Assembly: GCA_963845725.1 (NCBI GenBank)
Contig: CAWJTC010000008.1
Location: 2,159 to 66,158 of the forward strand
DNA from: an uncultured Acidobacteriota bacterium
GTDB taxonomy: Bacteria; Acidobacteriota; Terriglobia; Terriglobales; Acidobacteriaceae
Direction of reading: 5' to 3'
DNA length: 64,000 nt
Shown: positions 5,070 through 43,934 of the stretch, in pieces
Position numbering within the stretch: the first letter of the stretch is position 1
Layout of the letters: the number at the start of each line of letters is the position of its first letter
Program-made: the position numbers and the translations under genes
Notes under the pieces: generated by a model
What the model saw: only the letters and a program-made list of their open reading frames with translations
Told to the model about the DNA's origin: nothing
Databases searched by the model: none

Positions 5070-5612
5070 TCACTTTAACCGCGCTAGACGCGAGCATGGG
5101 GATGCAAATGCAGGATTGTTTTCGGGGCATTGTCTTATTCTGCGTACTGCCCTGCGGATGCGGTTTCCTCCGTCATCTGGCAGGCCTTGTTCGGTGTCCA
5201 GCACCAGCATGAGCCGGTCGTTCAGTTTGTGCACTCCGGTAATCATGGTGCGGATGCGTGCCGCGCAGCGTTTCCGGCGGGCGCTCGAAGGTGCTTCCTC
5301 GACTTCGACCACGTCGCCGATTTCATCCACCAGCAGACTGACGGCGCCATCATCGGAGCGGACCACCACATTCATGGCCGAGCATACCGGCCGGCCGTGG
5401 CATCCAGTTCCAGCCGCCGCCGCAGGTCCACCGCGGTGACAATCTGGCCGCGCAGGTTGATCAGGCCGCTGACCACGCTCGGGCGCCAGCGGAACCTGGG
5501 TGATGTCGAGCGAGCGAATTACTTCCTGGACGCCCTTGAGTTCCACCCCGAACAGCAGCTTATCCAGATAGAAGGTGCAGAACTGTGAGAGTCGGCATGG
5601 CTTAATGTGCAA
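5070..5612 (-). pseudogene. cheW: CheW coupling protein with a double frameshift through the conserved core
   Basis: LSQFCTFYLDKLLFGVELKGVQEVIRSLDITQVPLAP and NVVVRSDDGAVSLLVDEIGDVVEV are in the ORF frame. The canonical SVVSGLINLRGQIVTAVDLRRRLEL stretch between them reads only in another frame (about 5400-5480). Confidence 0.75.
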
Positions 5613-5639
5613 CCCCTGGGCCGCGTGCCGCGGCGGCGT

Positions 5640-23404: not shown

Positions 23405-24447
23405 GAGTTCTACTGCTTGGCCCGTATCCGCCTCCGCATGGAGGAGTGGAAACTCATGTGGTGGCGCTGCGGCGGTTTCTGCTCGGGCACGAAATTCCCT
23501 GCGCGATCATCAATATTACGCGGCATCGAAAAAAGGAAGCAGATGAGATTTACTATCCGAGAAACGCGATTGCCCTGATCAGACGGCTGCTCGGTCTTCG
23601 CGACGACATTCTTCACCTTCACGTCGGCGGGATGCTCAGCCGGAGAGTATTGCGTCTAGGACTGCTTTGCACTCTGTTGCCTGGCAAGAAAACGGTCTTC
23701 ACCTTTCATTCCGGTGGCTATGCTTCCCTGCCCGAGGCGAAGGCTCTGACTTCGCGTTCTTTGGCTGGCCTGGTTTTTCGACGCTTCGACCGCCTGATCG
23801 GTGTGAACCAGCAGATCGTGAATTTTTTCCATCAATTAGGTGTGTCTCGGGAGCGAACGCGTTTGATTGCGCCCCACGCTTTTTTCGACGACGAGGTTAA
23901 CAACGGAGAGCTGCCAGAGGCGCTGTGCACGTTTTTTTCTGACCATCAGCCTGTATTGATTTCGGTCGGGCAATTGGAACCTGAGTACGACCTTCCGAGA
24001 CAGATCGATGTGATGGGGCCTGTCCGCGATAAATTCCCCAATGCGGGCTTACTGCTGCTCGGGCGTGGCACCCTGGAGAACGACCTTCGCCAGAGCATTG
24101 CCGGAAAGCCCTTTGCGAAAGACATTCTGCTATGCGGCGATGTCGCGCACGCACTTGCACTGACGGCCATCGCCCGGGCCGATGTCATGTTGCGCACGAC
24201 TCTTTACGATGGCGACGCCATCTCGGTGAGGGAAGCGCTTCATCTTGGAACGCCGGTGGTGGCGACAGACAACGGTATGCGTCCAACTGGAGTGCAACTC
24301 GTGGAGGGGGCCAGCGTCGAAGCGCTGCTTGCAGCCGTGGAGCGGACACTGCGAAGTTCTGAGGCAAACGCTGAGAAGAAAGTGCCGCTCCCTGACGAGA
24401 GCAATTTGGAAGCGGTCTTGCGAGTTTACGGGGAATTGTTAACGTAG
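23401..24447 (+). CDS. GT-B glycosyltransferase (family 4-like)
   Basis: Intact 348-aa ORF. Its ATGA overlaps the stop of the preceding gene. MRVLLLGPYPPPHGGVETHV plus SVREALHLGTPVVATDNG. Confidence 0.75.
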   Translation: MRVLLLGPYPPPHGGVETHVVALRRFLLGHEIPCAIINITRHRKKEADEIYYPRNAIALIRRLLGLRDDILHLHVGGMLSRRVLRLGLLCTLLPGKKTVFTFHSGGYASLPEAKALTSRSLAGLVFRRFDRLIGVNQQIVNFFHQLGVSRERTRLIAPHAFFDDEVNNGELPEALCTFFSDHQPVLISVGQLEPEYDLPRQIDVMGPVRDKFPNAGLLLLGRGTLENDLRQSIAGKPFAKDILLCGDVAHALALTAIARADVMLRTTLYDGDAISVREALHLGTPVVATDNGMRPTGVQLVEGASVEALLAAVERTLRSSEANAEKKVPLPDESNLEAVLRVYGELLT

Positions 24448-24448
24448 T

Positions 24449-25822
24449 TCACTGCGCGCCCCGGCCCAACATGACGATCTTGATGGTTTGAACCATGATC
24501 AACAGGTCCAGCCCAATGGACCCATTCTTGATGTAGAAAAGATCGTACTGGAGTTTCTCTTTGGCGTCTTCCAGAGTATTGCCGTACTTATAGCGAATCT
24601 GCGCCCAGCCGGTGATCCCTGGCCTCACCGCATGGCGTACCGGGTAATAGGGAATTTCCTTGGTCAGCCACTCCACAAACTCCGGACGCTCCGGGCGCGG
24701 CCCCACGAAGGCCATATCTCCTTTCAACACGCACCAGAGTTGGGGAATTTCATCAAGCCGCGAAATGCGGAGGGCTTTGCCGATGCGAGTGATGCGGGGA
24801 TCATCATTGTCTGCCCAAGTGGGGCCGGTATCGGCTTCGGCGTCGCGGCGCATGGTGCGGAATTTATAACAATAAAAAATCGCACCGCCTCGACCCATGC
24901 GCTTCTGGCGATAAAGTACTGGCCCGGGCGAATCCAGCTTGATGGCCAGAATCACGAAAGGAACGATGGGCAGCAGGGCCAGCAAAAGGAATGCCGAAAC
25001 CAGGATTGACAACAGCCGCCTCACGAGTACGAATCCCGTGCTGAAGCGGAAGCCCTCGGTGAATATCAGCCAACTGGGATAGAGTTGCTCGACTTCGATC
25101 CGGCCTGACATTCTCTCCAGCCAGGTGGTGGCTTCCTCCACTTTGATGCCCTTGACCCGGAGTTGCAGCAGTTCCCGCACGGGAAGCGTGCCCCGCCGGT
25201 CGGTCATGGCAACGATAACGCGATGAACGTGCTCATGCTGCACCTGCTCCATCAAGTGTGAGGCAACCGCATCGCGAGTGGTGGCGCCTTCCATCGCTCC
25301 GCTCCACCCCACAATTTCGACCCCCAGTTCAGAGCGGCTGCGCAGACCGTTCACCAGGCGCTGCGCTCGCTCGCCCGTACCCAGGACGTAGACTCGCTCG
25401 CGAAAATAGGGTTGTTGCACCAGCCAGCCATAGGCCGCCCGCCAGGCAAATAGTCCAAGGGTTAGAATCACCAGCCCGGCCAGCGCGGCGTTGTTGCCGG
25501 GTAGAAGCGATGGGAAGACATAGCTTACTCCGGCCAGGATAAAAGCCAGCAGGCCGGGCACCAGCAGCAGCCTGAAATAGAGTTCTCCCTTTTCATCGAA
25601 GCGCGTGGGGTCATAAAGATCGAACCAATAGGAAAAAAAAAGGACGAGCAGCGTCACCAGCAAAATCTTGAAATATCCGCCTTCGTAATTCAGGGCCACA
25701 TAGAGGTCGTCGCGGTGCTGGAGAACCATCCCCAAGAAAAAGGAGGAGCAGACGATCAGCGCCTCGCCTGCCATCAGAACGAGCGTGCGAACCGGGTAAT
25801 GAACGTTGAACAGCCGAATCAC
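24449..25822 (-). CDS. Polyprenyl-phosphate glycosyl-1-phosphate transferase (EPS priming enzyme, EpsB/WcaJ-like)
   Basis: Intact 457-aa ORF with N-terminal TM helices. Bacterial sugar transferase domain PGPVLYRQKRMGRGGAIFYCYKFRTM...DEIPQLWCVLKGDMAFVGPRP. Confidence 0.85.
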   Translation of the reverse strand: MIRLFNVHYPVRTLVLMAGEALIVCSSFFLGMVLQHRDDLYVALNYEGGYFKILLVTLLVLFFSYWFDLYDPTRFDEKGELYFRLLLVPGLLAFILAGVSYVFPSLLPGNNAALAGLVILTLGLFAWRAAYGWLVQQPYFRERVYVLGTGERAQRLVNGLRSRSELGVEIVGWSGAMEGATTRDAVASHLMEQVQHEHVHRVIVAMTDRRGTLPVRELLQLRVKGIKVEEATTWLERMSGRIEVEQLYPSWLIFTEGFRFSTGFVLVRRLLSILVSAFLLLALLPIVPFVILAIKLDSPGPVLYRQKRMGRGGAIFYCYKFRTMRRDAEADTGPTWADNDDPRITRIGKALRISRLDEIPQLWCVLKGDMAFVGPRPERPEFVEWLTKEIPYYPVRHAVRPGITGWAQIRYKYGNTLEDAKEKLQYDLFYIKNGSIGLDLLIMVQTIKIVMLGRGAQ

Positions 25823-25871
25823 GCTCTACCTCTTGAACCCTTCTCCGGGCGGCAGTTGCCGCATGAACTTT

Positions 25872-27365
25872 CTAGTCAAGCCGGATCGGGCGGGAATGCC
25901 AATTCAGGCCAATCGCACCAACATATTGCCGCGCCTCGATATTGCATGGCGCCGTGGTACACACTGTGCTGTTAAACAACTGGTTGTCGAACTGAAAGCT
26001 CAGGAAGAAATCAAAATAATGGCCTAGAGGACGTTGCGCCACCGCCCCGGCATACACGTACTGGAACGAATTGGTGGAGGGCGGGAGGACTCCTGACACG
26101 AAGCCAGGCTCAATCTGGTCATTGTGCGAATAACCGACATCCGCCGACCCTGTCCACACCCTGGTCAAAGGCCGGGAAACGGAAAAGCGCACAATGTCGC
26201 TGGTCGCGCCCAGGAAAAAGCCGGATCCACCGGTGTTGTAACGGTCATAAGATAATGCCAGCGCAGTTCGCGGAAAGCGGTAACGCAAGGAGGCATGCGC
26301 GCTGGCAGTGATAATTTGCTTCGAACCGCCAAACAATGGAGAGTTATTAATCACCGTCACTTGTGGACCAGCGCCCAGCGTCAGATCCAGTCTGCCAGAA
26401 ATGCGGTGGCCATACATGAAAGTTCCAACATGGGTAATGAACGAACTGCCTGGAATATTCGGGTATTGAAATTGCTGGAATCCGTATACGAAGGCAATCT
26501 GGGTTTTGCCGGTGACTTGATAGTTGTATCCCGCCTGCGCAGTGATCTGGTTGCTGTTAATGAAGCCGGCGGAGTTGTCGGTGAAGTGAATCAGCCCGTA
26601 TCCGCCGGCCAGCGTGATCGATGATCGCTTGCTCAGACTCTGGTCGAGGTCGACGATCGACAAATTGTCAATCCGGGATTGCTGGCCGACAGAGCCAAAC
26701 TCAGCAAGCGTGAAAATGCCCCCCAATCCCGTGCCCAATTCCTCACCCTCAAAATTAAGAGGACCGAGACCCAATGTGGAGGCGCCTGATTCTCCGTATA
26801 CGCCGAATCCGAACGACCCTTGGGGCAGATAGCTGAGCTGATCGCGAAAAGTGAGTTGCCCGCTTCTCCACATCAGCTTTTGTTCGCCGTCGAACTGATG
26901 AATCTGACTGATGCTGGGATCTTGCGACGGGTAGTAGATAACGCCGCCCACGTAATCGAAAGCGGTTAGCGAATGGCTGCTTACCTTTTGCAGCATGATG
27001 CTGCCCAAGGCACGGGTCACCCCCACAAGTCCGGAACTTACCACGTTGTTACCCACGTTCGAGTCCAGCGCTTCGCTGACGTGCGCACCCAGCATGAGGA
27101 AACTGCGGGCCGGAATGAAGGGCCCAAGTGGAGGTTGATCCAGTCCGGAAATCGGATAATTGTTAGTATCCGCCGGCGGCGGCGTCGAAATCGTGCCCTG
27201 CGCCTGACCCGTTGCAGAAGCAGGTGGATTCTGCGGGACATTGGCAGGACTCTGATTCTGCCCGCTGTCGTTCTGCGCCCAACTCGTGGCCAGCGCGAGC
27301 ATGACGACTACGAGGACACGAATCCCCGGTTGCCGCTTCGACCCGGTTCTATTAGGGAACGACAA
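25872..27365 (-). CDS. Outer-membrane beta-barrel protein of the EPS export operon
   Basis: Intact 497-aa ORF with a signal peptide and a Gln/Pro-rich linker. The body has alternating beta-strand character. Its start overlaps the Wza-like gene by 14 nt. Confidence 0.6.
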   Translation of the reverse strand: MSFPNRTGSKRQPGIRVLVVVMLALATSWAQNDSGQNQSPANVPQNPPASATGQAQGTISTPPPADTNNYPISGLDQPPLGPFIPARSFLMLGAHVSEALDSNVGNNVVSSGLVGVTRALGSIMLQKVSSHSLTAFDYVGGVIYYPSQDPSISQIHQFDGEQKLMWRSGQLTFRDQLSYLPQGSFGFGVYGESGASTLGLGPLNFEGEELGTGLGGIFTLAEFGSVGQQSRIDNLSIVDLDQSLSKRSSITLAGGYGLIHFTDNSAGFINSNQITAQAGYNYQVTGKTQIAFVYGFQQFQYPNIPGSSFITHVGTFMYGHRISGRLDLTLGAGPQVTVINNSPLFGGSKQIITASAHASLRYRFPRTALALSYDRYNTGGSGFFLGATSDIVRFSVSRPLTRVWTGSADVGYSHNDQIEPGFVSGVLPPSTNSFQYVYAGAVAQRPLGHYFDFFLSFQFDNQLFNSTVCTTAPCNIEARQYVGAIGLNWHSRPIRLD

Positions 27366-27966
27366 TGGTATCTCCTGGCTTGAGGGCGACGTCCCGGCCG
27401 CCGGGCTCGCCCTTCACAAGCCGCTTGTAGTTGACCGGAATCCGCTGCTCCGTTCCGCTTTCAGTGCGCAGAATATAGATGTGCTTGGTGTTGGCGAACT
27501 GCGTGAAGCCTGCGTCAGCTAGTGCCTGCAGTACGGTCATCCCGGGCTGCAATTGCAGCGCGCCAGTGTGCTGAACTTCTCCGGTGACGTAAATTTTCTT
27601 GCTGTTAATTTCCTTCACGACCACGGTGACACGCGGATCGCCGACGTACTTTCTCAGTTTCTCGGTGATGGCTGCCGCCAGTTGCATCGGTGTTAATCCT
27701 GCGGCTTGCACATCGTTCAGCAAGGGGAGAGAGATGCTGCCATCTGGCCGGACCGGCAGTGTGCTGGTGAGGTCGGGCTCCTTCCAGACCGAAACCATAA
27801 GCACATCATCCGGACCAATGACGTAACTCGATCCCGTAACGGGCGCAGACACACTTGACTGGGCCGGGGGCGGGCCTGGCTTATGGTTTGCCTGGGATGA
27901 ATTCCGCGCAGCCGCAAACTCCAGCAGCACCAACACCATTGCGAGCATCAGCCTCATTCTTATCAT
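27352..27966 (-). CDS. Polysaccharide export protein (Wza/EpsE-like, Poly_export + SLBB)
   Basis: Intact 204-aa ORF. YVIGPDDVLMVSVWKEPDLT...PVRPDGSISLPLLNDVQAAGLTPMQL is the classic Poly_export motif. Confidence 0.85.
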   Translation of the reverse strand: MIRMRLMLAMVLVLLEFAAARNSSQANHKPGPPPAQSSVSAPVTGSSYVIGPDDVLMVSVWKEPDLTSTLPVRPDGSISLPLLNDVQAAGLTPMQLAAAITEKLRKYVGDPRVTVVVKEINSKKIYVTGEVQHTGALQLQPGMTVLQALADAGFTQFANTKHIYILRTESGTEQRIPVNYKRLVKGEPGGRDVALKPGDTIVVP

Positions 27967-28030: not shown

Positions 28031-28419
28031 CGCAAGGCTTTTCGGGGCACACATACCCTACAGCAAAGAGGTCAAAAGAAAAACGTTTTTCTCGAAGCGT
28101 TGCGAAGAAACATGGTGTCACATGCAGGACAAATATTCTATATACAGAATGCGCTTCTGGTTAGTCCTGTTCGTTCGATACGAGAGGTGCGCTCAAGCCA
28201 TGATAGCGCAGGTTTAAGCCTCGGGCCGCAACTCAATGAGTTGCCTGGAATTGCTCGAGACCCGCCAAGGGAGGCCCATCCCCGATGGGTATAACAATCA
28301 GATGTTGACCCGCCGTGGCTGACGGCAGTAAGATTCGCCTCGGTAAGAGCCGGGCTTGCGCTCCTCCCCGATGTCGCGCAGGCAGTCTACGGCAGCAGCC
28401 GTTCGCACAAACGCCACTT

Positions 28420-30816
28420 ATGAACCCACAATCTGCGTTCGCGGTTGACGTTGCCGAATTTGCCGCGGCCCTCTTGGCCCAGCAGGAGTCTGCCCCACGC
28501 GCGCAGTTAGTCGCAAATAAGGTTTCCGAGTTGCTGCTGGATACGGCAGTCGCGGTTTACCTCATCACGGACCAGGAAACTCCCGCCTGGACTGCCAAGG
28601 CAACCGCCGGCGATATCACGGTCGCTCAGACCGTAGAGTTTGACGCTGGAACGCTGGGAGCGGTAGCGGCGAAACGGGAACTCCTGGTGTTTGAGGTCAG
28701 CGGTCTTGCCCGGGAAGAATATGGCCACCTCGACATTCGACGGCAACTGGTCGCGCTCGCCTATGTACCCCTGCTGGTGAATGAGACTCTGATAGGCGCG
28801 ATCGAGTTGTTTCACTACGAACAGCCGTTTCCGGAAGCCATGCTGGAAGCGCTGAACGAGATCGCCGAGCTGGCTGCGCCGGCGCTCGCGGCGGCGCTTT
28901 TCTATGAAAGCGAGCGCAACACCAACCTGCACTCCATCAGCCGCGTCACCCAGATGTACGACCTGGAAAAGGTCTTCAATTCGACCCTGGAGATGGACGA
29001 ACTGCTGGGCACGATTGCGGGGAAGTTTCAGGAAGTCATGGCGGTGCAAGGCGTCAATTTGTGGATGGTCAATGGCGAAGATCTGGAATTGGTGGAGTGT
29101 GCCGGAGTCGACCGCACGGTGCAGGCTGGGATGGTGCAAAAACCGGGCGAAGGGATCGCGGGGGATCTCTCCGACAACGGCGAACCCGTGCTGATTGATG
29201 ATCCCGAGGATGAGCGCTTACAGAAGCGAAACCAAGGAGTGGAGGACGGGACTGTATTCTCCATCGTAGCCGCCGCGCTCATGGAGCACGATGCTCTGGT
29301 TGGCGTGGTTGAGGCGGTGAACCGGCTCGATGGGATGCCCTTCGACGAAGATGACGAGTTTCTGCTGACCAATATCTGCGAAACCGCCAGCAATGCGCTG
29401 CACAACGCCAGCTTGCTGCAAGCGGAACGCAAAGTGGAGATACTGGAAACCCTGGTTAAAGTCAGCAACGAAATTACCTCCACCCTCGACCTGGACCGGG
29501 TTCTGGACGCGATTGTCAACGGGCCCAGCAGCGTAATCCCTTATGAACGGGCGGCGATTGCGCTGGAGCAGCGGGGCCGTCTGCAACTGAAAGCAATAAC
29601 CGGGACGGCGAAGATAAATCCTCAAGACCCCGATACGTCGCGTCTACAGGAGTTGCTGGAATGGGCGTCATCGTCGAACCAGTCCATATTCGTGGTGCAG
29701 CACGGGGACGAAGTAGAGGACGAACGTCCCGAGACCCGCGCCAAGTTCGAGAAGTACTTTGCGGACAGCGGGATGCGCGCCTTTCATGCACTGCCGCTGG
29801 CGGATGACGACGGCACCGTGGGTATTCTTTCGTTCGAAAGCAGCGATCCGGATTTCCTCAGCACCGCCCATCTGGAAATGATCAAGGTGCTGGCCGGACA
29901 GGCGACGGTGGCGCTGCGCAATGCTTCCCTATATCGCGAAGTGCCATTCATAGATCTGCTCGAGCCCATCCTGGCAAGGAAACGCAAGTTCCTCGCGTTG
30001 GAGAAAGGCCGGCGGACGACCCTGGTGGCGGCAGCGGCTGTCGCCCTCTTGTTTTTTGCGGTTTTCCCCTTGCCGCTTCGTGTGGATGGCCCGGCTGTGG
30101 TTGCACCTGCGCATAGTGCGCGTGTGCAACCTGAAGTTGCAGGCGTGGTGCAGGCGGTGAACGTGCGAGAAGGTGATGCCGTGAAACAAGGCACCGTTCT
30201 GGCTCGGCTTGCGGATTGGCAATACCGCGACGAACTTGCCGCGGCCCAGGCCAAGTATGAGACCGCAGTTTCGCAAATGAACCGTGCGCTCGCTGCCAAC
30301 AACGGCACCGAGGCCGGCATCGAGCGCATCCAGGCGGACTACTGGTCTTCTGAAGTCGCCCGCGCCCGCGAGCGTTTGGAAAAGACACTGCTACGGTCTC
30401 CCATCGCCGGTCTGGTGGCCACACCCAATGTCGAGGACTCAGTCGGGCGCGATCTGAAACCCGGCGATACCTTTGCAGAGGTCGTCGATACTTCGCGCGC
30501 CACGGTGGATGTTGCCATCGACGAGCACGATGTTCCCCTCCTCCGCCAGGGAGACGAAGCCTCGGTGAAGCTCGAAGGATTTCCCTCGACCACGTTTCAC
30601 GGCGAGGTAATGGTTGTGAGCCCCAAGGGCCAGTTGCAAGGCGACGATCACGTCTTTTTTGCGCGGGTCAGCGTACCCAACAATCGGGGGCTGATCCGCG
30701 CCGGGATGCAAGGTCGCAGCAAGGTCTTTACCGCCTGGAGGCCTGCTGGAGAGGTCTTCTTCCGACGGCCCGCTATGTGGCTGTGGTCGGAAATTTGGTC
30801 GTGGTTTGGCTGGTGA
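28420..30816 (+). CDS. Triple-GAF sensor fused through one TM helix to a periplasmic membrane-fusion (HlyD-like) domain
   Basis: Intact ORF. The ATG at 28420 (MNPQSAF...) is preferred over the upstream extension. Three GAF-like blocks, then TM TTLVAAAAVALLFFAVFPLPL, then lipoyl/beta-barrel adaptor motifs (VQPEVAGVVQAVNVREGDAVKQGTVLARL, LRSPIAGLV) and a Trp-rich tail ...MWLWSEIWSWFGW. Confidence 0.8.
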   Translation: MNPQSAFAVDVAEFAAALLAQQESAPRAQLVANKVSELLLDTAVAVYLITDQETPAWTAKATAGDITVAQTVEFDAGTLGAVAAKRELLVFEVSGLAREEYGHLDIRRQLVALAYVPLLVNETLIGAIELFHYEQPFPEAMLEALNEIAELAAPALAAALFYESERNTNLHSISRVTQMYDLEKVFNSTLEMDELLGTIAGKFQEVMAVQGVNLWMVNGEDLELVECAGVDRTVQAGMVQKPGEGIAGDLSDNGEPVLIDDPEDERLQKRNQGVEDGTVFSIVAAALMEHDALVGVVEAVNRLDGMPFDEDDEFLLTNICETASNALHNASLLQAERKVEILETLVKVSNEITSTLDLDRVLDAIVNGPSSVIPYERAAIALEQRGRLQLKAITGTAKINPQDPDTSRLQELLEWASSSNQSIFVVQHGDEVEDERPETRAKFEKYFADSGMRAFHALPLADDDGTVGILSFESSDPDFLSTAHLEMIKVLAGQATVALRNASLYREVPFIDLLEPILARKRKFLALEKGRRTTLVAAAAVALLFFAVFPLPLRVDGPAVVAPAHSARVQPEVAGVVQAVNVREGDAVKQGTVLARLADWQYRDELAAAQAKYETAVSQMNRALAANNGTEAGIERIQADYWSSEVARARERLEKTLLRSPIAGLVATPNVEDSVGRDLKPGDTFAEVVDTSRATVDVAIDEHDVPLLRQGDEASVKLEGFPSTTFHGEVMVVSPKGQLQGDDHVFFARVSVPNNRGLIRAGMQGRSKVFTAWRPAGEVFFRRPAMWLWSEIWSWFGW

Positions 30817-30830
30817 ACCGAGGTGACGTC

Positions 30831-31720
30831 ATGAAACAAGACATCTTGATTGGGCTGGCGATTCTGATACTGGGCTTGAGTGGATGTAGCGGATCGAGAG
30901 AGACAGTCGCGGCCGCTGCCCCGGTTCAACCGCCTGAGCAGCCAGTCAGCGTACAAAAGGAAAATGTCTTCGTCGCCTCAGGCCCAATCGTGGTGGAGAA
31001 CGAGGTGGATGTCAGCGCATTGCGAGAATGGCCTGGTGGTGGAGATCTTTGCCCAGCCCGGCACTCAGGTTCGCAAGGGACAACTTCTGGCCAGACTCGA
31101 CGACCGCGAGATATCCGACGACGTTGAGGCCGCAGGCTGCCAGAGTCCGGTCGATAGAGGCAAATCTCAAGAATTGGCAGGCTGAGACCAAAGTTCTGCA
31201 GGCCGACCGCACTCGTGCCGAGAAACTGTACGAAGCGCAGGTCATTCCCAAGGAAGAACTGGAGCACGCGCAATACAAGGAAGAGGCCGACGAATACGAA
31301 GTACAGCGTGAAGCCGAAAGCCTGAATAACGCCAAGGCGACGGAAAAATCACTCGAAGTGGAGCGGGACAAAACCGATATCGTCGCTCCCTTCGGCGGAA
31401 TCGTCGCTCGCCGTTACGTGCGCGTCGGCCAGAGGGTTGCGGTCGGGGACCGACTTTTCTGGGTCACGGCGATGGGCCCCTTGCAGGTGAAATTCGCCCT
31501 GCCGGAACGTTTTTTTGGAAAGCTGCACGACGGCGAGCAGTTCACGGTGAGTTCGGCCGACATTTCTCCCGAAGCCAAGTACCCCGCCAGAATCGTTCAG
31601 GTCAGCCCGGTGGTGGATCCGGCGAGCGGAACGATTGACGTCCTGGCCCAGGTGGTCGGATCAGCTCCCGGCCTTCGGCCCGGCATGCTGGTGAACATCA
31701 GTCTCAGTCAGCAGCCATGA
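30831..31720 (+). pseudogene. Lipoprotein membrane-fusion (RND/HlyD adaptor-like) protein with two same-direction frameshifts
   Basis: ATG at 30831 after GAGGTGA. Lipobox LILGLSGC. ENGLVVEIFAQPGTQVRKGQLLARLDD reads only after a shift near 31022. QAARVRSIEANLKNWQAE...IVAPFGGIVARRYVRVGQRV reads after a second shift near 31135. Confidence 0.7.
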
Positions 31721-33867
31721 ACATCCTCGAAGCTCTGGATGTAGCGCTTCCGGAACTGCCGACGAAGAGTGCCCGCAAGAGCTATCCCAAGCTCGATCCT
31801 CAGGTCATATCCAAAGAGCACATTGAGCACGGAGTGCCGACCGTCCTCGCCAAAATGCCGGGCAGCAATAGTTTTGTCCGGCTCACCCCAGAGCAGTGGA
31901 AACTGCTTGAATTGTTCGATGGCGAACGGACGTACCAGGACGTTGCGGGCCTGACGGAAGAGGCAACCGGCGTAGCGTTTACGGAAGACGATGTGAAAGA
32001 GTTCGCATCCTTCCTGCAAGACCAGACCGACCTCTTCTACCGCACGCCGCTGGAAAAGAACATTACTTTAAAGCAGAAAGTGGGTGCCGATCGTCATAAG
32101 CGCAACCGCTTCGCAGTGGCCGACATCACGGACATCACGCTCCATCGCTGGCCGCGCGCCGACGATTATCTGACCAAACTCCAGCCCTACGTGCAGTTCG
32201 TTTACACGACTTGGTTCACCGTGCTCACGCTCCTCTGTTTTGGCGTCATGGTCTGGATGTGGGCTGACAAGGCGGGCGAAATCTGGGACGACAGCTTTCG
32301 CTTCTACAACTTCACGCAAAAGGGTTTCTGGGACCTGGTTGAGTTCTGGTTTCTGTTCGGGGCCATGGCCTTTTTCCACGAGTCGGGTCACGGTATGACC
32401 TGCAAGCAGTTTGGCGGAAAAGTGGAAAAGATGGAATTCCTTTTGATGTTTTTCGCGCCCACCTTCGTCTGCGATGTAACCCAGATCTGGATCATCGGCG
32501 ACCGCAAGGCCCGCCTGGCCACCATCATCTCCGGCATCTGGATCGACCTGATTATTTGTTTTCTGGCGACGACTATCTGGTGGGCAACCGTCCCTGGCAT
32601 GTGGATCCATGACTTCGCTTACAAGGTCATTATGGTTTCGGGGATCGGGGTCACGCTGCTAAACCTGAATCCCCTCATAAAACTCGACGGTTACTACATG
32701 TTTTCCGAAGTGGTAGGGGAGGCCGACCTGAAGGAACGGACCACCGTGTACGTTTCGGAATGGGTGAAAAAGAACCTCTTCGCCCTGCCCGTCGAAGTCG
32801 AATACATCCCCAGACGACGACGTTTTCTATATATCCTCTACGCGCTGCTATCAGGTATTTACAGCTACCTGCTGATTTTGTTCGTAGTTATTTTCATCTA
32901 TAACGTGCTGCGGTCCTACACTCCGGAGTATGCCTGGATACCGGGGTTGCTGGTCGCGTACCTCATGTTCAAATCGCGGATTCGGAAGCTGGTGAGATTT
33001 ATGAAGGACGTTTACCTGGACAAGAAAGATCGGTTGCGAGCGTGGTTTACCCCCACACGTACAATTGCCGTTTCCGCTGTGGCGCTGCTGCTGCTCCTGG
33101 CGCCGGTGTGGCCTGACTTCGTCGAGGGCCGCTTCGTGATTGAGCCCGCACAGCAGGCGGTGATCCGCGCGGAGGTGCCAGGAGTTGTGACGCAGGTGCT
33201 GGCCGCTGAGGGCCAGTCCGTCACACCGGGGGCCGTGCTGCTACGACTGCAAAACCTGGAACTTGAGTCGGCGGCAGCCCAGGCTGAGGCGGGGTTGCGT
33301 GAGGCGTCCGCCCGGGCGGCAGACGCGGGTCTGCACTACTCCGATTTCGGACGAGCCGAGCGCGTGCGCCAGGAAATGTCTCAGCGCTACCGCACTCTGG
33401 CTGATCAAGTCGGACATTTGCAAGTGGCGAGCCCGATTGCCGGTGTCGTGGTTACACCGCAGTTGAACGACCTACTGGGAAGCTACGTGGAGGCAGGGGC
33501 GCAAATGGTGGATGTCGCGAACCTCAGCACAATGCAGGCGCGAATTTACATCCCACAGTACGGGGTTCGCGACGTTCGAATCGGCACTAGAGTGCGGCTG
33601 CAATTGCACTCACAGTTCCTACCCATTTCGGGAACGCTGGCCTCGATCGCGCCTCTCTCCTCGCCAATCGATCCTGGCTTGGTCGAGAAGGCGGAACTGA
33701 GTGGCATCGTGCCGCCAGCATTCTATGTTGGCTCCGTAAGGCTTAAGAACAATGGAAGCCTCCGAGAAGGAATGACCGGTGCCGCCAAGTTGTTCGTTCG
33801 ACATCGCAGCGCAGCTGAAATGACGTGGAGATTCGCGCGCGACCTGGTGCGGCGTCGATTCTGGTAA
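31717..33867 (+). CDS. PqqD/RRE-like domain + M50 (site-2-protease family) intramembrane metalloprotease + C-terminal membrane-fusion (HlyD-like) domain
   Basis: Intact 716-aa ORF whose ATGA overlaps the preceding stop. HESGH at 32377-32391 and NLNPLIKLDG at 32662-32691 (both M50 signature motifs). Multiple TM helices. Adaptor motifs VIRAEVPGVVTQVLAAEGQSVTPGAVLLRL and VASPIAGVV. Tail ...MTWRFARDLVRRRFW. Confidence 0.85.
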   Translation: MNILEALDVALPELPTKSARKSYPKLDPQVISKEHIEHGVPTVLAKMPGSNSFVRLTPEQWKLLELFDGERTYQDVAGLTEEATGVAFTEDDVKEFASFLQDQTDLFYRTPLEKNITLKQKVGADRHKRNRFAVADITDITLHRWPRADDYLTKLQPYVQFVYTTWFTVLTLLCFGVMVWMWADKAGEIWDDSFRFYNFTQKGFWDLVEFWFLFGAMAFFHESGHGMTCKQFGGKVEKMEFLLMFFAPTFVCDVTQIWIIGDRKARLATIISGIWIDLIICFLATTIWWATVPGMWIHDFAYKVIMVSGIGVTLLNLNPLIKLDGYYMFSEVVGEADLKERTTVYVSEWVKKNLFALPVEVEYIPRRRRFLYILYALLSGIYSYLLILFVVIFIYNVLRSYTPEYAWIPGLLVAYLMFKSRIRKLVRFMKDVYLDKKDRLRAWFTPTRTIAVSAVALLLLLAPVWPDFVEGRFVIEPAQQAVIRAEVPGVVTQVLAAEGQSVTPGAVLLRLQNLELESAAAQAEAGLREASARAADAGLHYSDFGRAERVRQEMSQRYRTLADQVGHLQVASPIAGVVVTPQLNDLLGSYVEAGAQMVDVANLSTMQARIYIPQYGVRDVRIGTRVRLQLHSQFLPISGTLASIAPLSSPIDPGLVEKAELSGIVPPAFYVGSVRLKNNGSLREGMTGAAKLFVRHRSAAEMTWRFARDLVRRRFW

Positions 33868-33900
33868 CCACGCCCCCATCCGAACCCCTTAAAACACAAA

Positions 33901-33923
33901 AAGGGCCTGACTCGCAGGCCCTT
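33901..33923. terminator. Hairpin between convergent genes; it works as an intrinsic terminator for the minus-strand repeat ORF (T-tract on that strand)
   Basis: AAGGGCCTG-ACTCG-CAGGCCCTT, a perfect 9-bp stem. On the minus strand it is followed by TTTGTGTTTT. Confidence 0.65.
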
Positions 33924-33962
33924 CTTGGCGACATTCCAAACGGAATTCTAAGGTTGAAGCTG

Positions 33963-34301
33963 TTATGCCGGCCGAACTGCTGGCCGTACCGCTGGCCTCA
34001 CCGCCGGACGCACTGCTGGCCGAACTGCCGGGCGTACAGCGGGTCTGACGGCAGGGCGCACCGCTGGCCGAACTGCGGGTCTAACGGCGGGGCGTACCGC
34101 TGGTCGAACTGCTGGCCGGACCGCCGGGCGTACGGCTGGCCGGACGGCTGGGCGTACTGCTGGCCGGACGGCTGGGCGTACTGCTGGCCGGACGGCTGGG
34201 CGTACTGCGGCAGCAATCTGAGGTGACTGAGTCGGGGTGGCCAGGATAGCCTTCTTCACCGCCGTCCGCTGACTGATGAGAGACTTTTTTTGGACTGACA
34301 T
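33963..34301 (-). CDS. Hypothetical, extremely basic 112-aa protein: 31-aa unique N-terminus followed by 20 perfect Ala-Val-Arg-Pro repeats
   Basis: ATG at 34301 lies 8 nt after AAGGAG. A sigma-54 promoter lies upstream and a hairpin terminator downstream. All repeat-unit differences are synonymous in this frame only. Confidence 0.7.
   Translation of the reverse strand: MSVQKKSLISQRTAVKKAILATPTQSPQIAAAVRPAVRPAVRPAVRPAVRPAVRPAVRPAVRPAVRPAVRPAVRPAVRPAVRPAVRPAVRPAVRPAVRPAVRPAVRPAVRPA
33969..34208 (-). repeat. Coding minisatellite: 20 x 12-nt units (the first six form 3 identical 24-nt units)
   Basis: Read directly from the sequence as GCN GTN (CGN/AGR) CCN x 20. Confidence 0.95.
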
Positions 34302-34374
34302 TTGGAATCTCCTTTTTTATTTTGATTTCTCAATCGCGCCGGCTGAGCACCTCAGCGCTTACGCCTGTTCATGT

Positions 34375-34390
34375 AGCAAGGTGGATGCCA
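34375..34390 (-). promoter_or_regulatory. Sigma-54 (-24/-12) promoter upstream of the AVRP-repeat ORF
   Basis: The minus strand reads TGGCATCCACCTTGCT, against the consensus TGGCAC-N5-TTGCW with exact spacing and one mismatch. It lies about 75-90 nt upstream of the ATG at 34301. Confidence 0.7.
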
Positions 34391-34514
34391 AACTAACCCG
34401 GCCGGCGCCAGAAAAAGGGAACTTAGTATTTTCAGATACTTGCGGGCCGCAGCCAAGATTCGTGACACATCCGACGAAAGCTTGGAAATGGAATGGGTTA
34501 AAAATCAAACCTAC

Positions 34515-34564
34515 AAGGTATTAATATTTAATCGTTCGTCTATCAGAAGGTTAATTCCTAATCG
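34515..34564 (-). promoter_or_regulatory. Pair of AT-rich direct repeats, a possible upstream activator site for the sigma-54 activator
   Basis: AAGGTATTAATATTTAATCG (34515-34534) and AAGGTTAATTCCTAATCG (34547-34564), 125-175 nt upstream of the -24 element. Confidence 0.3.
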
Positions 34565-34565
34565 C

Positions 34566-35975
34566 CTAATCCTTCCCGATGCGGTACTTGCGGCACAGAT
34601 AGTGCATCTTCTGTTTATCGATTTGCAGCAGGCGCGCGGCGCCCATCTTACTGCCCCCAGACCGCCGTAACGCTGCTTCCAGATACGCGACCTCGATGCG
34701 CGCAATCTCCTCATCGAACTTGACCCCTTCCTCCGGAATCAGCAACGACTCCTGGGAGGTTGCGCTGTTGTAGAGAATCCGTTGAGGCAGGTGTTGCACT
34801 TTGATGATCGGCCCATCCACCATCAGAACCAGCCGTTGCACCAGGTTTTCCAGTTCTCGCACGTTGCCCGGCCAGGGATCCTCCTCTAAAATCTGGATGA
34901 CCTCAGGATCGAGGTGTTTGAAGGGAGCGCCATTCTGGGCACAATAAGTGCGCAGGAAATGGTCGATCAGCAGAGGAATGTCTCCTGACCGCTCCCGTAG
35001 CGGCGGCAGGGCGATGGGTACGACGTTGATACGATAATACAGGTCCTCGCGAAAACGGCCGGTGTGGACCATGTCCTCCAGGTCCTCGTTGGTGGCAGTG
35101 ATGAGCCGGAAGTCGATTTTCTTGGGATTGTGCCCGCCGATGCGGGTCACTGCGCGGCCTTCCAAAACCCGCAATAATTTCGACTGCAGGGCCAGCCCCA
35201 GAGTGGCAATCTCGTCCAGAAACAAAGTGCCGGTGTGTGCTAACTCTATGTGTCCCTGCCGGGCTTCCTTAGCATCGGTGAAGGCGCCTTTTTCGTGGCC
35301 GAACAGCTCAGTTTCGATGAGATTTTCGGGCAGAGCGGCGCAGTTGATGCTGATAAAAGGTTTCTCGGCCCGGGGTCCCATGCTGACGATGGCTCGCGCC
35401 ACCAGTTCCTTCCCGGTTCCGCTCTCGCCGCGGATCAGCACCGTGCTGTTGCTGTCAGCGACCCGGGTAATGGCCTCATAGACGCGGCGCATGGTCTCAC
35501 TGGCGCCAATCAGTTCGCCGAACGATTCCTGCTGCGCCTCTTGCTCCTGCCGTCGCTGGTAATCGATCTCTATGGCGCGCTTTTCAAGCGCACGGCCGAG
35601 GACAACCCGGACCTCTTCAAAGTTGATCGGGGCCACAAAATACTGATCGACGGTGGCCTCGATGGCCTTGTGCCGTAACTTACGACTGTCGGAGCGGGTG
35701 AGAGCCACCAGCACCAAATCGGGCCCAACCGACCGCAATTCCGCGAGCGCCGTGATCCCTCGTTCGCTATTGTCCCCGACGGTATCGATATCCAGGAGTA
35801 TGGCGTCGGGCAACTGTTTCTTTATCAATGCCAACAGCTCATCCCAGGTCTGAAACACGTGAAGGTCGTAGTCGGGCGCGAGATAGGTTTCGGCCTCAGG
35901 GCCGACTAACTCGTCACCGGTAACAATGGCAATGCGGTAACGGGAGGGCAGATTGCGGGTGGCTGCGGCGCGCAT
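34566..35975 (-). CDS. Sigma-54-dependent transcriptional activator (NtrC-family bEBP) with an atypical receiver domain and a Fis-type HTH
   Basis: Intact 469-aa ORF, ATG after GGGAG. Walker A GESGTGKE, GAFTDA (a GAFTGA variant), LFLDEI, and C-terminal HTH AARLLQIDKQKMHYLCRKY. The REC-like N-terminus carries ...YFVAPI... where K-P is expected. Confidence 0.9.
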   Translation of the reverse strand: MRAAATRNLPSRYRIAIVTGDELVGPEAETYLAPDYDLHVFQTWDELLALIKKQLPDAILLDIDTVGDNSERGITALAELRSVGPDLVLVALTRSDSRKLRHKAIEATVDQYFVAPINFEEVRVVLGRALEKRAIEIDYQRRQEQEAQQESFGELIGASETMRRVYEAITRVADSNSTVLIRGESGTGKELVARAIVSMGPRAEKPFISINCAALPENLIETELFGHEKGAFTDAKEARQGHIELAHTGTLFLDEIATLGLALQSKLLRVLEGRAVTRIGGHNPKKIDFRLITATNEDLEDMVHTGRFREDLYYRINVVPIALPPLRERSGDIPLLIDHFLRTYCAQNGAPFKHLDPEVIQILEEDPWPGNVRELENLVQRLVLMVDGPIIKVQHLPQRILYNSATSQESLLIPEEGVKFDEEIARIEVAYLEAALRRSGGSKMGAARLLQIDKQKMHYLCRKYRIGKD

Positions 35976-36224: not shown

Positions 36225-36563
36225 TTGGACATCAATGTCCGTAAGCGTTCTGAAGTGCAACTGTTCCAGCTTCGTGGTCCGCTAAGGATGGGACCCGCAG
36301 TGGATGGATTACGTCAGGCAATGGAGGAAGTTATAGGCCAGGGCGACCATCGTTTTGTCATCAATCTTGCCGAGGTAAACATGATTGATTCCAGCGGGAT
36401 CGGCCTGCTGGTGCGGTTTCTCGCATCCACCAAGAAACAGGGCGGAAGCATCAAACTGGTCCAGCCCTCGAAGTTTGCCGTACAAACGCTGAAGCTGGTG
36501 GGAGTGCTCAATCTGTTCGAAATCTTCGAGGATGACGACACGGCGGTGGCATCCTTTTCTTGA
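36225..36563 (+). CDS. STAS-domain anti-sigma-factor antagonist (SpoIIAA/RsbV-like)
   Basis: TTG start 7 nt after AAGGAG gives about 112 aa. The phosphorylatable-Ser region is INMIDSSGIGLLV. Confidence 0.75.
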   Translation: MDINVRKRSEVQLFQLRGPLRMGPAVDGLRQAMEEVIGQGDHRFVINLAEVNMIDSSGIGLLVRFLASTKKQGGSIKLVQPSKFAVQTLKLVGVLNLFEIFEDDDTAVASFS

Positions 36564-36609: not shown

Positions 36610-37047
36610 ATGGCCAATGAACCCAGCCCTGACGCGAGTAGCAGCTTCACCGAACTGCTTAACCTTAGCCTGCCTGCAAATTCAGAGTCGATCGCCATCA
36701 TTACCGCGGCCATTTCGGAAATCCTCGAGCGGCTGGAGATTCCGGAACAGAAGAGGTTCGAGATCGACCTGGCGGTGCAGGAGGCCCTGGCCAACGCTGT
36801 GGTTCACGGATGCGAGGGAGATGCATCGAAGACCATCGGGTGCAGGTTGAATGGCGATCAAAAGGGCCACATCGTGATTTCGGTGAGCGATCCGGGCCCT
36901 GGCTTCCGGCCCGAGGCGATTCCCGATCCTAAGCGTGCCGACGGTCTGTACGGCGACCACGGCCGCGGGGTTTACCTGATCCGGCAGTTGATGGATGAAG
37001 TTCAGTTTGAGCGTGGCGGGGCCGAAATCAAGATGTGGAAGTATTGA
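36610..37047 (+). CDS. Anti-sigma regulatory factor / serine kinase (RsbW/SpoIIAB-like HATPase)
   Basis: Intact 145-aa ORF. EALANAVVHG (N-box) and SDPGPGF...GRGVYLIRQLMDEV (G-boxes). Confidence 0.75.
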   Translation: MANEPSPDASSSFTELLNLSLPANSESIAIITAAISEILERLEIPEQKRFEIDLAVQEALANAVVHGCEGDASKTIGCRLNGDQKGHIVISVSDPGPGFRPEAIPDPKRADGLYGDHGRGVYLIRQLMDEVQFERGGAEIKMWKY

Positions 37048-37080: not shown

Positions 37081-37800
37081 TTAATCCGCATCCGAGGGTT
37101 GGCGGGCGAACTCGCGGAACCTGAATTGCGCTTCCAACGAATCCAGCCATGACTGGAGGATGGCCCCGGAATTCTTTTCCACGTAGAGGAAGCGCAGGCC
37201 CATGACAAACGAATCGGCCCACACCACATCCGCCTTGGCGTGAAAAACTTGCGGATCAAGACTGGGCACCTCGAATTCCACAATAACCACGCCTTGCAAT
37301 TTAACCGGGTCCACCGGCCGAATAGCCAACCCACCCTCGCTCACGTTCTTCATCTTCGCGCTTAGCGATTCCCCCAGGGTGTTGTGAAACCGCACTGGCA
37401 GATCGACATCGTAGCGGAAATATCTCTGATGTTCACGCTCCATCTTGGGAATGGCGCTATCCAGCAGGCTCCGCAATCGGGTCTCCTGAATCGGCTTGCA
37501 GAGCACAAAGTTGGCTCCTAAATCGAGCGCGGTTTCGGCGCTGGTCAGATGGTTGACCACAGCGAAAATCGTGCACTGCTTATTGGAGCGGCTGTTGCGG
37601 ACTTGGGCCAGAGCTTCAGTACCGCCGTGCACGTCATCGCAGTCAATGACCAGTCCGTCCAAGTGACGCCGGGAGGCAAGTTCGATGGCACTGGCGGAAT
37701 CTTGCCGTAGATCAAGCGAGGCGCGACGCCCGCTTAAACCTGCCATGATTTGGTCCAGCAGGGTGGTATCGGAAGTTACGACCAGGCACTCTACGCCCAT
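37081..37800 (-). CDS. Response-regulator receiver domain fused to a PilZ-like domain
   Basis: Intact 239-aa ORF. REC motifs (LVIDCD, FVLCKP). The C-terminal half has NVSEGGLAIR (D/NxSxxG) after an imperfect RxxxR region (QRYFRYD). Confidence 0.65.
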   Translation of the reverse strand: MGVECLVVTSDTTLLDQIMAGLSGRRASLDLRQDSASAIELASRRHLDGLVIDCDDVHGGTEALAQVRNSRSNKQCTIFAVVNHLTSAETALDLGANFVLCKPIQETRLRSLLDSAIPKMEREHQRYFRYDVDLPVRFHNTLGESLSAKMKNVSEGGLAIRPVDPVKLQGVVIVEFEVPSLDPQVFHAKADVVWADSFVMGLRFLYVEKNSGAILQSWLDSLEAQFRFREFARQPSDAD

Positions 37801-43445: not shown

Positions 43446-43934
43446 TCACAAGTCTTTTTCGTACTCATATAAAGGCATACCAAAGAAATCGGTCACTACT
43501 CCCGTAGCTCGAAATTTGTTTCTCAGATAAAAAGCAATCGCCCGCTCCAGAGGCTTGGTCGTGTCGAGTGTGACCCGCCGGCAGTCGGATGTCCGCAGCT
43601 CAGCTTCGGCAGCATTAAGAAGATTTTGCGCGATATCATGACCGTGCCAGGCCGGGAGAACCGCCATTCCTCGAATGTGCCGCTCGTCTACGCTCGGACG
43701 ATTGCAGGCGATGGTGCCGATGATTTCTCCATCGAGATCCGCCGCCACGAATATTGACATGCCGTGAAAACGTGTTTGCAGGGTACCGGGTGTCAGCACC
43801 GTGTCCAGAAAAGCGGCGGGAGTGTAATCCTTGCGGTAGGGCTCGAACGCTTCGTGAAGGCAGCGCAGAACTCCGGGCAGATCCTGAGACACGGCCTTTC
43901 TGAGCACGACATTTTCCCCGCGTCTCACTCCCAC
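43446..43934 (-). CDS. GNAT-family N-acetyltransferase
   Basis: Intact 162-aa ORF. The acetyl-CoA loop region is [20 protein letters not shown]. Confidence 0.7.

Follow-up and report, generated by a model that had tools for sequence, protein, structure and literature searches.

What is made from a tandem array whose DNA units have drifted apart while the peptide they encode has stayed perfect, and what might such a peptide do? This question is raised by a small open reading frame (ORF) in a 64,000-nt stretch of DNA from an uncultured bacterium of the Acidobacteriota (Terriglobia, Acidobacteriaceae; GenBank assembly GCA_963845725.1, contig CAWJTC010000008.1, positions 2,159 to 66,158), which we call the window. 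The ORF (33963..34301, minus strand) encodes 112 amino acids and a stop codon: MSVQKKSLISQRTAVKKAILATPTQSPQIAA, then 20 copies of AVRP, then a final Ala, so that 31 residues precede the array. We conclude that the peptide gene is real but unannotated. We are virtually certain that it is under selection at the level of the peptide, and highly confident that it belongs to a family of leader-bearing peptides and to a conserved gene module. We further propose, with a probability of about 0.55, that the peptide is a sigma-54-induced leader-core precursor that would be docked and clipped by a neighboring membrane protein, releasing a polycation. That neighbor appears to combine a recognition element (RRE) of the kind found in pathways for peptides made by the ribosome and modified after translation (RiPPs) with an M50 (site-2) protease.

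The repeat array and selection on its product

The array (33969..34208, minus strand) is by far the strongest tandem repeat of the 64 kb (Tandem Repeats Finder, score 255). Translated unit by unit from 34208 to 33969, its 20 consecutive 12-nt units all give A-V-R-P. Columns 1, 2, 4, 5, 8, 10 and 11 of the unit are invariant; columns 3, 6, 9 and 12 contain all four bases; and column 7 is C or A, the switch between CGN and AGR codons for Arg. The variable columns are, without exception, third codon positions or this first position of the Arg codons. All four codons for Ala, for Val and for Pro are used, as are all six for Arg, and units 1-6 are three identical 24-nt copies. A first-pass annotation of the DNA had described the 20 units, the full set of synonymous codons and the three identical copies, and inspection of the codons bears it out. 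It had also described a product free of Asp and Glu, with about 25 positive charges and no Sec or Tat signal, which is likewise correct. The product has 25 Lys or Arg residues and no Asp or Glu. No Sec-like or transmembrane core was found in it (the maximal 19-residue Kyte-Doolittle mean is 0.62), its own sequence has no RR motif and no Cys and thus neither a Tat motif nor a lipobox, and Gly is absent from the whole peptide and with it any GG/GA cleavage motif.

The changes among the units are confined to those that leave the peptide intact. Fifteen distinct 12-nt units encode the one peptide unit, and their minimum spanning tree requires at least 23 substitutions, all of them synonymous (P<=2e-11, with a random substitution in the array being synonymous with probability 0.34). 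Between the window and one orthologous locus (L001), the array codons have 59 synonymous and 3 non-synonymous differences and the leader codons 11 and 0. Seven orthologous arrays (L001, L002, L004, L007, L008, L010 and L017) each contain 6-16 distinct DNA units and essentially one peptide unit. The earlier suggestion that the target of selection is the peptide rather than the DNA repeat is therefore supported in the window and in the orthologues.

Units 7-20 have a mean third-position difference of 0.75 and a mean codon difference of 0.77, versus 0.72 expected for random draws from the codon usage of the genome. In a unit-by-unit comparison of the window with L001, identity in register is no higher than identity out of register. 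Thus, the array is synonymously saturated yet protein-perfect. A-ending codons are enriched relative to a genome sample (GCA, 40% versus 15%; GTA, 35% versus 10%; CCA, 60% versus 12%). The array appears to be still expanding at its 5' end, the site of the three identical 24-mers. Saturation could reflect arrays of great age held under strict purifying selection, or else an additional selection for heterogeneity of the DNA.

Regularity alone cannot identify the coding strand here, because one antisense frame, whose wobble positions are also those of the sense frame, almost matches it in regularity. It reads (TAGR)n in 17 of the 20 units and breaks (R to L) exactly at the sense AGA and AGG codons for Arg. 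The first-pass annotation missed this frame: its statement that the other frames decay is right in that (TAGR)n breaks at the AGR codons, but not in that the frame is otherwise regular. Judging by the sequence, the sense frame is singled out by its ATG, its Shine-Dalgarno sequence, the conserved leader, the promoter and the AGR switches. We rejected (TAGR)n as a coding frame; it has no start in the window, breaks at AGR and is not conserved in orthologues of the ALKP or VAPK type. The antisense ORF at 33825..34226 (plus strand), an irregular string of W, P and C, was also rejected. In other loci, antisense frames of the (TAGR)n type give spurious ORFs of 120-172 aa (L004, 8145..8663; L007, 8109..8570; L014, 8200..8562), which gene callers could choose over the real peptide gene.

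An independent assembly of the same organism (L028, NCBI GCA_049283315.1) carries the identical 339-nt ORF. The array is therefore not an assembly artefact, which the first-pass annotation had named as an outcome that would overturn its reading. The peptide gene is uncalled in the L028 record, and a collection of 15 billion predicted proteins does not contain its exact product. Two of the three other assemblies with a 100%-identical protease gene break inside the AVRP array (L029, contig end 6334; L030, contig end 3026). Thus, this locus often defeats short-read assemblers, which probably leaves the family under-sampled. With gene callers missing the gene as well, the family is invisible in current annotation.

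The idea that the locus encodes no protein is effectively refuted, whether one takes it for a DNA minisatellite, for an antisense ORF or for an artefact of assembly with one frame open by chance. The missing gene call in the NCBI record, the near-regular antisense frame and the two same-strain assemblies that break within the array are what such an explanation could draw on. It does not fit with variation that is synonymous only (at the P value given above), with a leader, Shine-Dalgarno sequence and sigma-54 promoter conserved in all loci, with 275 members found through the leader profile, or with the identical sequence in the independent assembly. It is also at odds with the failings of the antisense frame (no start in the window, breaks at AGR, no conservation in ALKP- or VAPK-type orthologues) and with the Rfam search of 33600-34700, which found no family and only sub-threshold miRNA noise.

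A leader shared by a family of basic peptides

The first 23 residues of the peptide (MSVQKKSLISQRTAVKKAILATP; 34233..34301, minus strand) are a family-wide leader, and the repeat is one of many types of tail; the first-pass annotation missed both points. We searched a family profile (43 members) against 1.84 billion representative proteins at E<=1e-3 and obtained 275 matches. Nearly all of the 275 are 50-130 aa long. Setting aside seven long low-complexity proteins among the best 150, lengths run from 41 to 217 aa, and in most cases the match begins at the leader. Matches of 251-6576 aa were rejected as compositional. Eight of the 17 matches from a search with the full-length peptide (P0001, P0006-P0008, P0011, P0014, P0015 and P0017) were rejected as leaderless PSVR/PAVR low-complexity ORFs.

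In the 174 clean members on which the family statistics are based, the leader is near-invariant, basic and amphipathic, with the consensus M-S-[VI]-[QE]-K-K-S-L-I-S-[NQ]-R-x-A-[VT]-K-K-A-[IL]-[VIL]-A-[TSK]-P. K5, K6, S7 and L8 are conserved at 99-100%, and I9, R12, A14, K16, K17, A18 and A21 at 82-98%. A variable linker follows at residues 24-31 (TQSPQIAA in the window; 34209..34232, minus strand). Acidic residues (up to 24%) are confined to positions 24-31, where basic ones are few, and Pro is common at positions 23-24 and 30. The composition across the family makes the linker a candidate site for removal of the leader. From position 32 on, 20-35% of residues are basic. The tails have no Cys, 2% Asp plus Glu and a median net charge of +8. 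The median length of the peptides is 66 aa, and the copy in the window is among the three longest.

Many of the tails, though not all, are tandem repeats, and thirty-six of the 174 pass a strict self-identity test. The repeats have periods of 4-14 and units that include PTKLH, HMKVPAA, FRVKTPDA, PWKPT, LAKGPAA, ASRNT and TPKLGHGV; other tails are non-repetitive ends rich in K, R and F. One contig (L022) has three tandem paralogues (5239..5439, 5544..5730 and 5831..6028) that share the leader MSVQKKSLIS and differ in their basic tails, one of which is a period-5 RP[LM]KF repeat. A conserved leader with a hypervariable core, sometimes in tandem paralogues, is the signature of a precursor peptide. 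A short co-encoded precursor with a conserved leader and a variable core is also what RRE-guided systems in general contain, and it is what we find here.

The family had been thought to match no described bacterial family, and our searches agree. Pfam, NCBIfam and PADLOC gave nothing above noise for the peptide and ten relatives (the PT repeat family scored 21.5 against a cutoff of 26.2). Sequence matches in the PDB (circumsporozoite NANP, OCM3 PSGQ) are to other tetrapeptide repeats and were rejected as non-homologous. No description of the peptide family, or of a module with RRE, M50 and HlyD parts, was found in the literature searched (M50 with HlyD, RRE with M50, repeat precursor with sigma-54).

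The module around the peptide gene

The peptide gene converges on the gene for a 716-aa protein (31717..33867, plus strand) that appears to be a fusion of an RRE, an M50 site-2 protease and an HlyD-type adaptor (NCBIfam, HlyD_3, HlyD_D23). Searching with this protein against one genome per GTDB species, we found 21 loci in Terriglobia metagenome-assembled genomes (MAGs), at 47-85% identity. Judging by their names, the MAGs come from surveys of Danish soil and of peat or palsa. Two of the loci end at a contig edge. In all 19 complete loci, a small leader-bearing ORF that starts with MSVQKKSLISQR... lies convergent to the M50 gene, 80-200 nt away; its tail is basic and in most cases a tandem repeat. 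The arrangement recurs, between unrelated flanks, in another seven contigs to which the peptide or the protease led and which extend far enough to reveal the neighborhood (L022-L025, L026/L027, L028 and L031). Searches (tblastn) with the genes of the window show that only the module is conserved and the flanks are not. Present everywhere are a STAS gene (usually with an RsbW-like kinase), a sigma-54 activator, the peptide, the RRE-M50-HlyD protein, a second HlyD protein and a GAF-HlyD protein. The first-pass annotation had correctly placed the peptide gene convergent to an operon with an M50 protease, at a distance of 96 nt; the gap to the stop of the M50 gene is 95 nt. It missed that this link is a strict, module-level association and that the protease bears an RRE.

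The repeat unit changes from lineage to lineage. AVRP or AIRP, in 7-21 copies, is found in the window, L001-L004, L007, L014 and L017; AVRA-AVKP in L005 and L013; KVSAAVRP in L006; ALKP in L008; AVRG in L009; VAPK in L010; ARVAPKVA in L011 and L021; and AARP in L012 and L019. Orthologues had been expected, if the gene is real, to keep the reading frame, to vary in copy number and to have the same neighbors. They do keep the frame, copy number varies from 7 to 21 and the module is conserved; the flank on the side of the exopolysaccharide (EPS) genes is not. Five copies have a broken frame (L012, L014, L019, L020 and a fifth contig, L031 [P0005]). In each, the frame is shifted by one 1-nt indel, behind which the array stays perfect in the repeat frame and ends in a normal C-terminus, and four of the five are in MFD-named MAGs. 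These breaks are either recent or sequencing errors. Frame-breaking indels or non-synonymous drift in orthologues had been named as evidence that would count against the gene, and these five breaks do not have that force, the array behind each single indel being still perfect. For the same reason we rejected pseudogenization of the orthologues.

The identity of the protease is central to what the peptide might be. Its residues 24-419 align to positions 1-367 of the 379 in the NCBIfam model daptide_HExxH (NF041824; E 1.2e-40), with a score of 139.8 bits, below the family cutoff of 300. The match to the YydH/LiaK epipeptide protease (NF058609) is weak (E 4.9e-6, 26 bits versus a cutoff of 225), and that to Pfam Peptidase_M50 is 25.2 bits, just under the cutoff of 27.2. 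The motifs that an M50 protease is expected to have in two separate transmembrane helices are present: HExxH (221-225) and NLNPLIKLDG (316-325), the latter with the third zinc ligand. H221, E222, H225, N316, N318, P319, L320, L323, D324 and G325 are invariant in 32 homologues. The membrane part matches the site-2 protease of M. jannaschii (3b4r) and SpoIVFB (8vjl) in a Foldseek search of the PDB. The HlyD-type adaptor part comprises residues 470-650, after a last hydrophobic segment at 450-468.

The N-terminal domain (residues 25-105; 31789..32031, plus strand) has an RRE-like (PqqD-like) fold, with a three-stranded sheet and three helices. In the AlphaFold2 model, strands at 31-37, 40-46 and 54-56 are followed by helices at 58-65, 73-84 and 90-103; modeled alone, the domain has a predicted local distance difference test (pLDDT) of 81-89 over residues 21-110. 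Its top Foldseek matches in the PDB are almost all RREs (TbiB1 with leader, PqqD, ThcOx, lasso B1, TglI and CteB), with probabilities of 0.66-1.0, TM-target values up to 0.66 and E-values of 0.014-0.4. Hydropathy and the helices of the model suggest that the N-terminus is inside and the C-terminus outside, which would place the RRE and the active site in the cytoplasm and the HlyD part in the periplasm.

Two further adaptor genes precede the protease gene in the convergent operon. The first gene of the operon encodes a protein with three GAF domains, a transmembrane segment and an HlyD part (28315..30816, plus strand; gene callers in L029 start it at the equivalent of 28420). The second encodes an HlyD-type lipoprotein with the lipobox LSGC (30831..31720, plus strand). 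Two +1 insertions, near 31027 (GAGATGG to GAGAATGG) and 31136 (GCAGCTG to GCAGGCTG), split the lipoprotein gene of the window over three frames. The gene is intact, as a 295-aa ORF, in the otherwise near-identical L028, and the insertions are either sequencing errors or a strain-specific pseudogene. Elsewhere in the window, a CheA-like ORF with only Hpt and dimerization domains (7056..8102, minus strand) and a GMP synthase with most of its GATase domain missing (43925..45112, minus strand) look truncated, which suggests that the assembly has further single-base indels.

Expression of the peptide gene is predicted to depend on sigma-54. The sequence TGGCAT-N5-TTGCT (34375..34390, minus strand), 74 nt upstream of the ATG, is the sole match in the 64 kb to the strict -24/-12 consensus TGGCAY-N5-TTGCW. 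In 15 of the 31 loci the strict consensus is matched a single time, in each case at the peptide gene; the rest have relaxed variants. Every locus but L022 has a GG-N10-GC element 58-99 nt upstream of the ATG; in L022, a single such element precedes the first of the three tandem peptide genes. Thus, the hallmarks of a sigma-54-dependent gene, a -24 GG and a -12 GC at 10-nt spacing with a cognate AAA+ activator next to them, are all present. The activator gene (34566..35975, minus strand), immediately upstream of the peptide gene and on the same strand, encodes an enhancer-binding response regulator with receiver, AAA+ and HTH_8 domains (Sigma54_activat, 1.7e-69). The protein scores below the cutoff of every NCBIfam equivalog, and wherever a locus extends far enough, its gene is seen to adjoin the peptide gene.

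Further signals flank the gene. The Shine-Dalgarno sequence AAGGAG (34309..34314, minus strand) lies 7 nt before the ATG, and AAGGAG or GGAGG is found at the equivalent place in 23 of 23 loci examined. An intrinsic terminator, a 13-bp hairpin with a T-run (33897..33927, minus strand), lies between the convergent genes. The first-pass annotation had seen the sigma-54 promoter, the terminator and the strong AAGGAG; only its spacing of 8 nt needs correction. In an alignment of eight upstream regions, a segment between promoter and Shine-Dalgarno sequence (34333..34361, minus strand; TAAGCGCTGAG...CAGCCGGCGCGAT, also given as TAAGCGCTGAG...GCCGGCGCGAT) has a nearly invariant AAGCGC and, in most loci, a GCGC downstream. 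This part of the 5' untranslated region might fold into a hairpin, with an effect on translation or on the stability of the mRNA. An A+T-rich near-palindrome (GATTAAATATTAAT ... TTTGATTTTTAACCC; 34495..34533, minus strand), about 105-145 nt upstream of the -24 box and conserved in eight loci, is a candidate enhancer for the activator, by analogy with the usual geometry of sigma-54 enhancers. A conserved element between it and the promoter in the eight-locus alignment (CGCAAnTnTCTGAAAATACT, also given as CTGAAAATACT; 34425..34444, minus strand) is a candidate DNA-bending site. We rejected a transcription-attenuation leader peptide; a terminator and a convergent gene follow the ORF, and there is no downstream gene.

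Divergent from the activator gene are genes for a STAS protein (36225..36563, plus strand) and an RsbW-like HATPase_c_2 kinase (36610..37047, plus strand). STAS is linked to the module in 26 of 31 loci. In nine of them (L009-L012, L016 and L018-L021; around 1900-3800) it remains attached although it has shifted away from the activator to the GAF-HlyD end, so partner-switching input seems to be part of the system. A fusion of a receiver and a c-di-GMP-binding PilZ domain (37081..37800, minus strand) adjoins the partner-switching genes and is conserved only in L001 and L002. Directly upstream of the convergent operon is an EPS-type cluster (22169..27966) with two group-1 glycosyltransferases, a Bac_transf sugar transferase, a 497-aa protein without a Pfam match and a Poly_export/SLBB protein. 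By tblastn, the EPS, PilZ and cytochrome-peroxidase neighbors are common only to the window and its two closest relatives. We therefore rejected a functional link to the EPS genes, and the cluster is probably outside the module.

Proposed function, alternatives and significance

We postulate that the activator fires the sigma-54 promoter of the peptide gene and that the leader of the product would then dock on the cytoplasmic RRE domain. The M50 active site would clip within the linker, presumably around residues 23-31, and the polycationic repeat released would be the active product. The three HlyD adaptors, one a lipoprotein and one with cytoplasmic GAF sensors, would pass the repeat across the envelope, together with a transporter and an outer-membrane channel supplied from genes elsewhere. 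Outside the cell, the repeat may act on anionic surfaces, either the envelopes of competitors or the cell's own matrix. We consider docking on the RRE and cleavage by the M50 protease reasonably probable. Export is the weakest step of the proposed mechanism, and we would give it somewhat short of even odds.

Several observations weigh against this proposal. There is no ABC, RND or MFS transporter and no TolC-like gene in the module or in the 64-kb window, and a cell would pay a high energetic price to push some +20 charges out against its membrane potential. Strictly speaking this is not a RiPP pathway, since the module comes without tailoring enzymes. Foldseek gives the RRE marginal E-values (the best being 0.014), and the N-terminus of the protease has no Pfam PqqD match; the RRE call thus rests on the fold and the daptide profile. 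The middle HlyD gene is frame-shifted in this window. Lastly, the chemistry of the tail would fit intracellular binders of nucleic acids or polyphosphate, such as AlgP and PhaF, equally well.

The known systems most like this one also use dedicated peptidases for small ribosomal peptides. The daptide pathway has leader-core precursors and an RRE-fused intramembrane site-2 (M50) peptidase, DapP/MpaP, together with the DUF-RRE protein MpaB, the decarboxylase MpaC, an aminotransferase, a methyltransferase and a precursor ending in Thr (10.1101/2023.03.08.531785). The module described here resembles it in the N-terminal RRE fused to an M50 intramembrane protease, and in the small precursors encoded beside the protease, at times more than one, whose leader is conserved and whose core varies. 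It differs in that no DUF-RRE protein, oxidative decarboxylase, aminotransferase or methyltransferase is found in the module or adjacent to it in the window, and the peptide of the window ends in ...RPA instead of Thr. In addition, the protease is fused to an HlyD adaptor with two more adaptors alongside, control is by sigma-54, the cores are tandem-repeat polycations and the host is of the Acidobacteriota, whereas daptide hosts are Actinomycetota or Bacillota. The closest relative is the daptide RRE-site-2 peptidase, and the system itself is not a daptide pathway.

Similarly, the epipeptide system of YydF with YydH/LiaK dedicates an M50 protease to a small ribosomal peptide, but the module described here has no radical-SAM epimerase and no ABC exporter, and the precursors are unrelated. 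In double-glycine bacteriocins, the leader is removed by a membrane peptidase coupled to an HlyD-type adaptor and the products are cationic and unmodified; colicin V, for instance, uses the peptidase-ABC transporter CvaB, the HlyD-type adaptor CvaA, and TolC. Here, in contrast, the peptide is free of Gly, the module and window contain no C39 peptidase, ABC transporter or TolC, and the peptidase is an RRE-M50 protein fused to the adaptor itself. The Pro/Arg-rich antimicrobial peptides of animals (Bac5, Bac7, PR-39 and oncocin, with PRP/RPP motifs) share with the peptide about 25% Pro, about 25% Arg, short-period repeats and a lack of acidic residues. The first-pass annotation had pointed to such peptides, to polyproline-II rods and to polyanion-binding tails as analogies. 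The resemblance to the antimicrobial peptides is compositional only; those peptides are eukaryotic and much shorter, and PRP/RPP motifs are absent here. Based on these comparisons, we conclude that the system works like an RRE-guided leader-peptide system and is none of a daptide, an epipeptide, a double-glycine bacteriocin or an AlgP/PhaF protein.

The main rival to a secreted product is an intracellular role, because no transporter or channel gene is nearby and export of +20 charges is costly. A disordered cationic tail would bind DNA, RNA or polyphosphate, the leader would tether the peptide to the RRE-M50 complex or make it degradable by it, and the protease would control its level. The repeats of AlgP are KPAA with KPVA and KPAV variants (PMC9239181); KPAA repeats bind DNA and polyphosphate granules, use their lysines to bind RNA (specific mRNAs included) and differ in copy number from strain to strain and from species to species (PMC9239181, PMC12818456). 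The first-pass annotation missed that the KPAA and KPAV repeats of AlgP and PhaF are the closest in chemistry. (AVRP)n can be read as (RPAV)n, an Arg version of KPAV/KPVA. (RPAV)20 is built from tetrapeptides of the type seen in AlgP, PhaF and histone H1 tails (a basic residue, a Pro and two residues that are small or aliphatic), and 20-30 copies in variable number and a lack of acidic residues are further likenesses to AlgP and PhaF. Units in relatives (ALKP, AVKP/AVRA, VAPK and AARP) are of the same kind, and the peptide itself is without a secretion signal. Still, the peptide has Arg in place of Lys, and where AlgP and PhaF start with a folded domain of more than 100 aa (a 124-aa helical domain and a phasin domain, respectively), it has only a 23-aa leader in a 31-aa N-terminus. 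No homology was detected in Pfam or NCBIfam, and the units of most relatives are unrelated to KPAA (PTKLH, PWKPT, FRVKTPDA, ASRNT, non-repeat K/F-rich ends). The context of RRE-M50-HlyD and sigma-54 is different, three periplasmic HlyD adaptors with an RRE-site-2 protease are hard to fit with a purely cytoplasmic protein, and tandem paralogues with one leader resemble sets of precursors. We therefore regard an intracellular polyanion binder as unlikely.

Two other uses of the repeat can be imagined. The array could be a polyprotein, cut between units into many short peptides (e.g., AVRP or PAVR) that serve as a lineage-specific signal, as in multi-copy pheromone or Kex2-processed repeat precursors. 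Its unit is perfect within a lineage and differs between lineages at about 70% protease identity (AVRP, ALKP, AVRA-AVKP, KVSAAVRP and VAPK), a basic residue in every unit of the family is a possible cleavage point, and there are 7-21 copies. We think this improbable: many members have non-repetitive tails, the conserved module offers no second, soluble protease for processing, the linked regulator is a sigma-54 activator and not a peptide-sensing receptor, and no receptor candidate was identified. Alternatively, with a Pro at every fourth residue, the repeat might be a rod that stays with the HlyD/M50 complex and threads or gates a periplasmic conduit, like the Pro-rich rods of TonB. This would make sense of the regular spacing of Pro, the variation in copy number (and so length) between lineages and the strict genetic coupling to three periplasm-spanning adaptors. 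It is purely inferential, and Pro is replaced by Ala or Gly in several lineages (AVRG, AVRA and ARVAAKVA), many members have short non-repeat tails and nothing would anchor the peptide after leader removal; we consider it very improbable.

The precursor reading, if correct, would extend the RRE-site-2-protease logic of daptides to a system with no tailoring enzymes, an adaptor-fused protease and repeat cores. The locus is also of use to others. Engineers diversify codons to stabilize synthetic repeat genes, and this array is an unusually clean natural case of a perfect repeat protein made from maximally diversified codons. The family provides a natural series of (basic-Pro-aliphatic)n peptides, graded in length and unit, that can be compared with the KPAA repeats that organize polyphosphate, DNA and RNA.

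More speculatively, there might be throughout the Terriglobia an unrecognized class of unmodified, ribosomally made tandem-repeat polycations. These would be commanded by sigma-54, addressed by their leader to an RRE-site-2-protease-HlyD protein and released through a transporter-less assembly of three adaptors, with the private units of each lineage making them kin-specific effectors. We offer this tentatively and think it rather unlikely as a whole. If it is true, the effectors could be antimicrobial, matrix-organizing or signaling, the private repeat unit of each lineage would be under strong purifying selection, and the scrambling of codons might come in part from selection against repeat instability. 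Acidobacteriota, the Terriglobia included, are among the most abundant soil bacteria, and a conserved seven-gene module with its own sigma-54 switch is likely to be of ecological importance to them.

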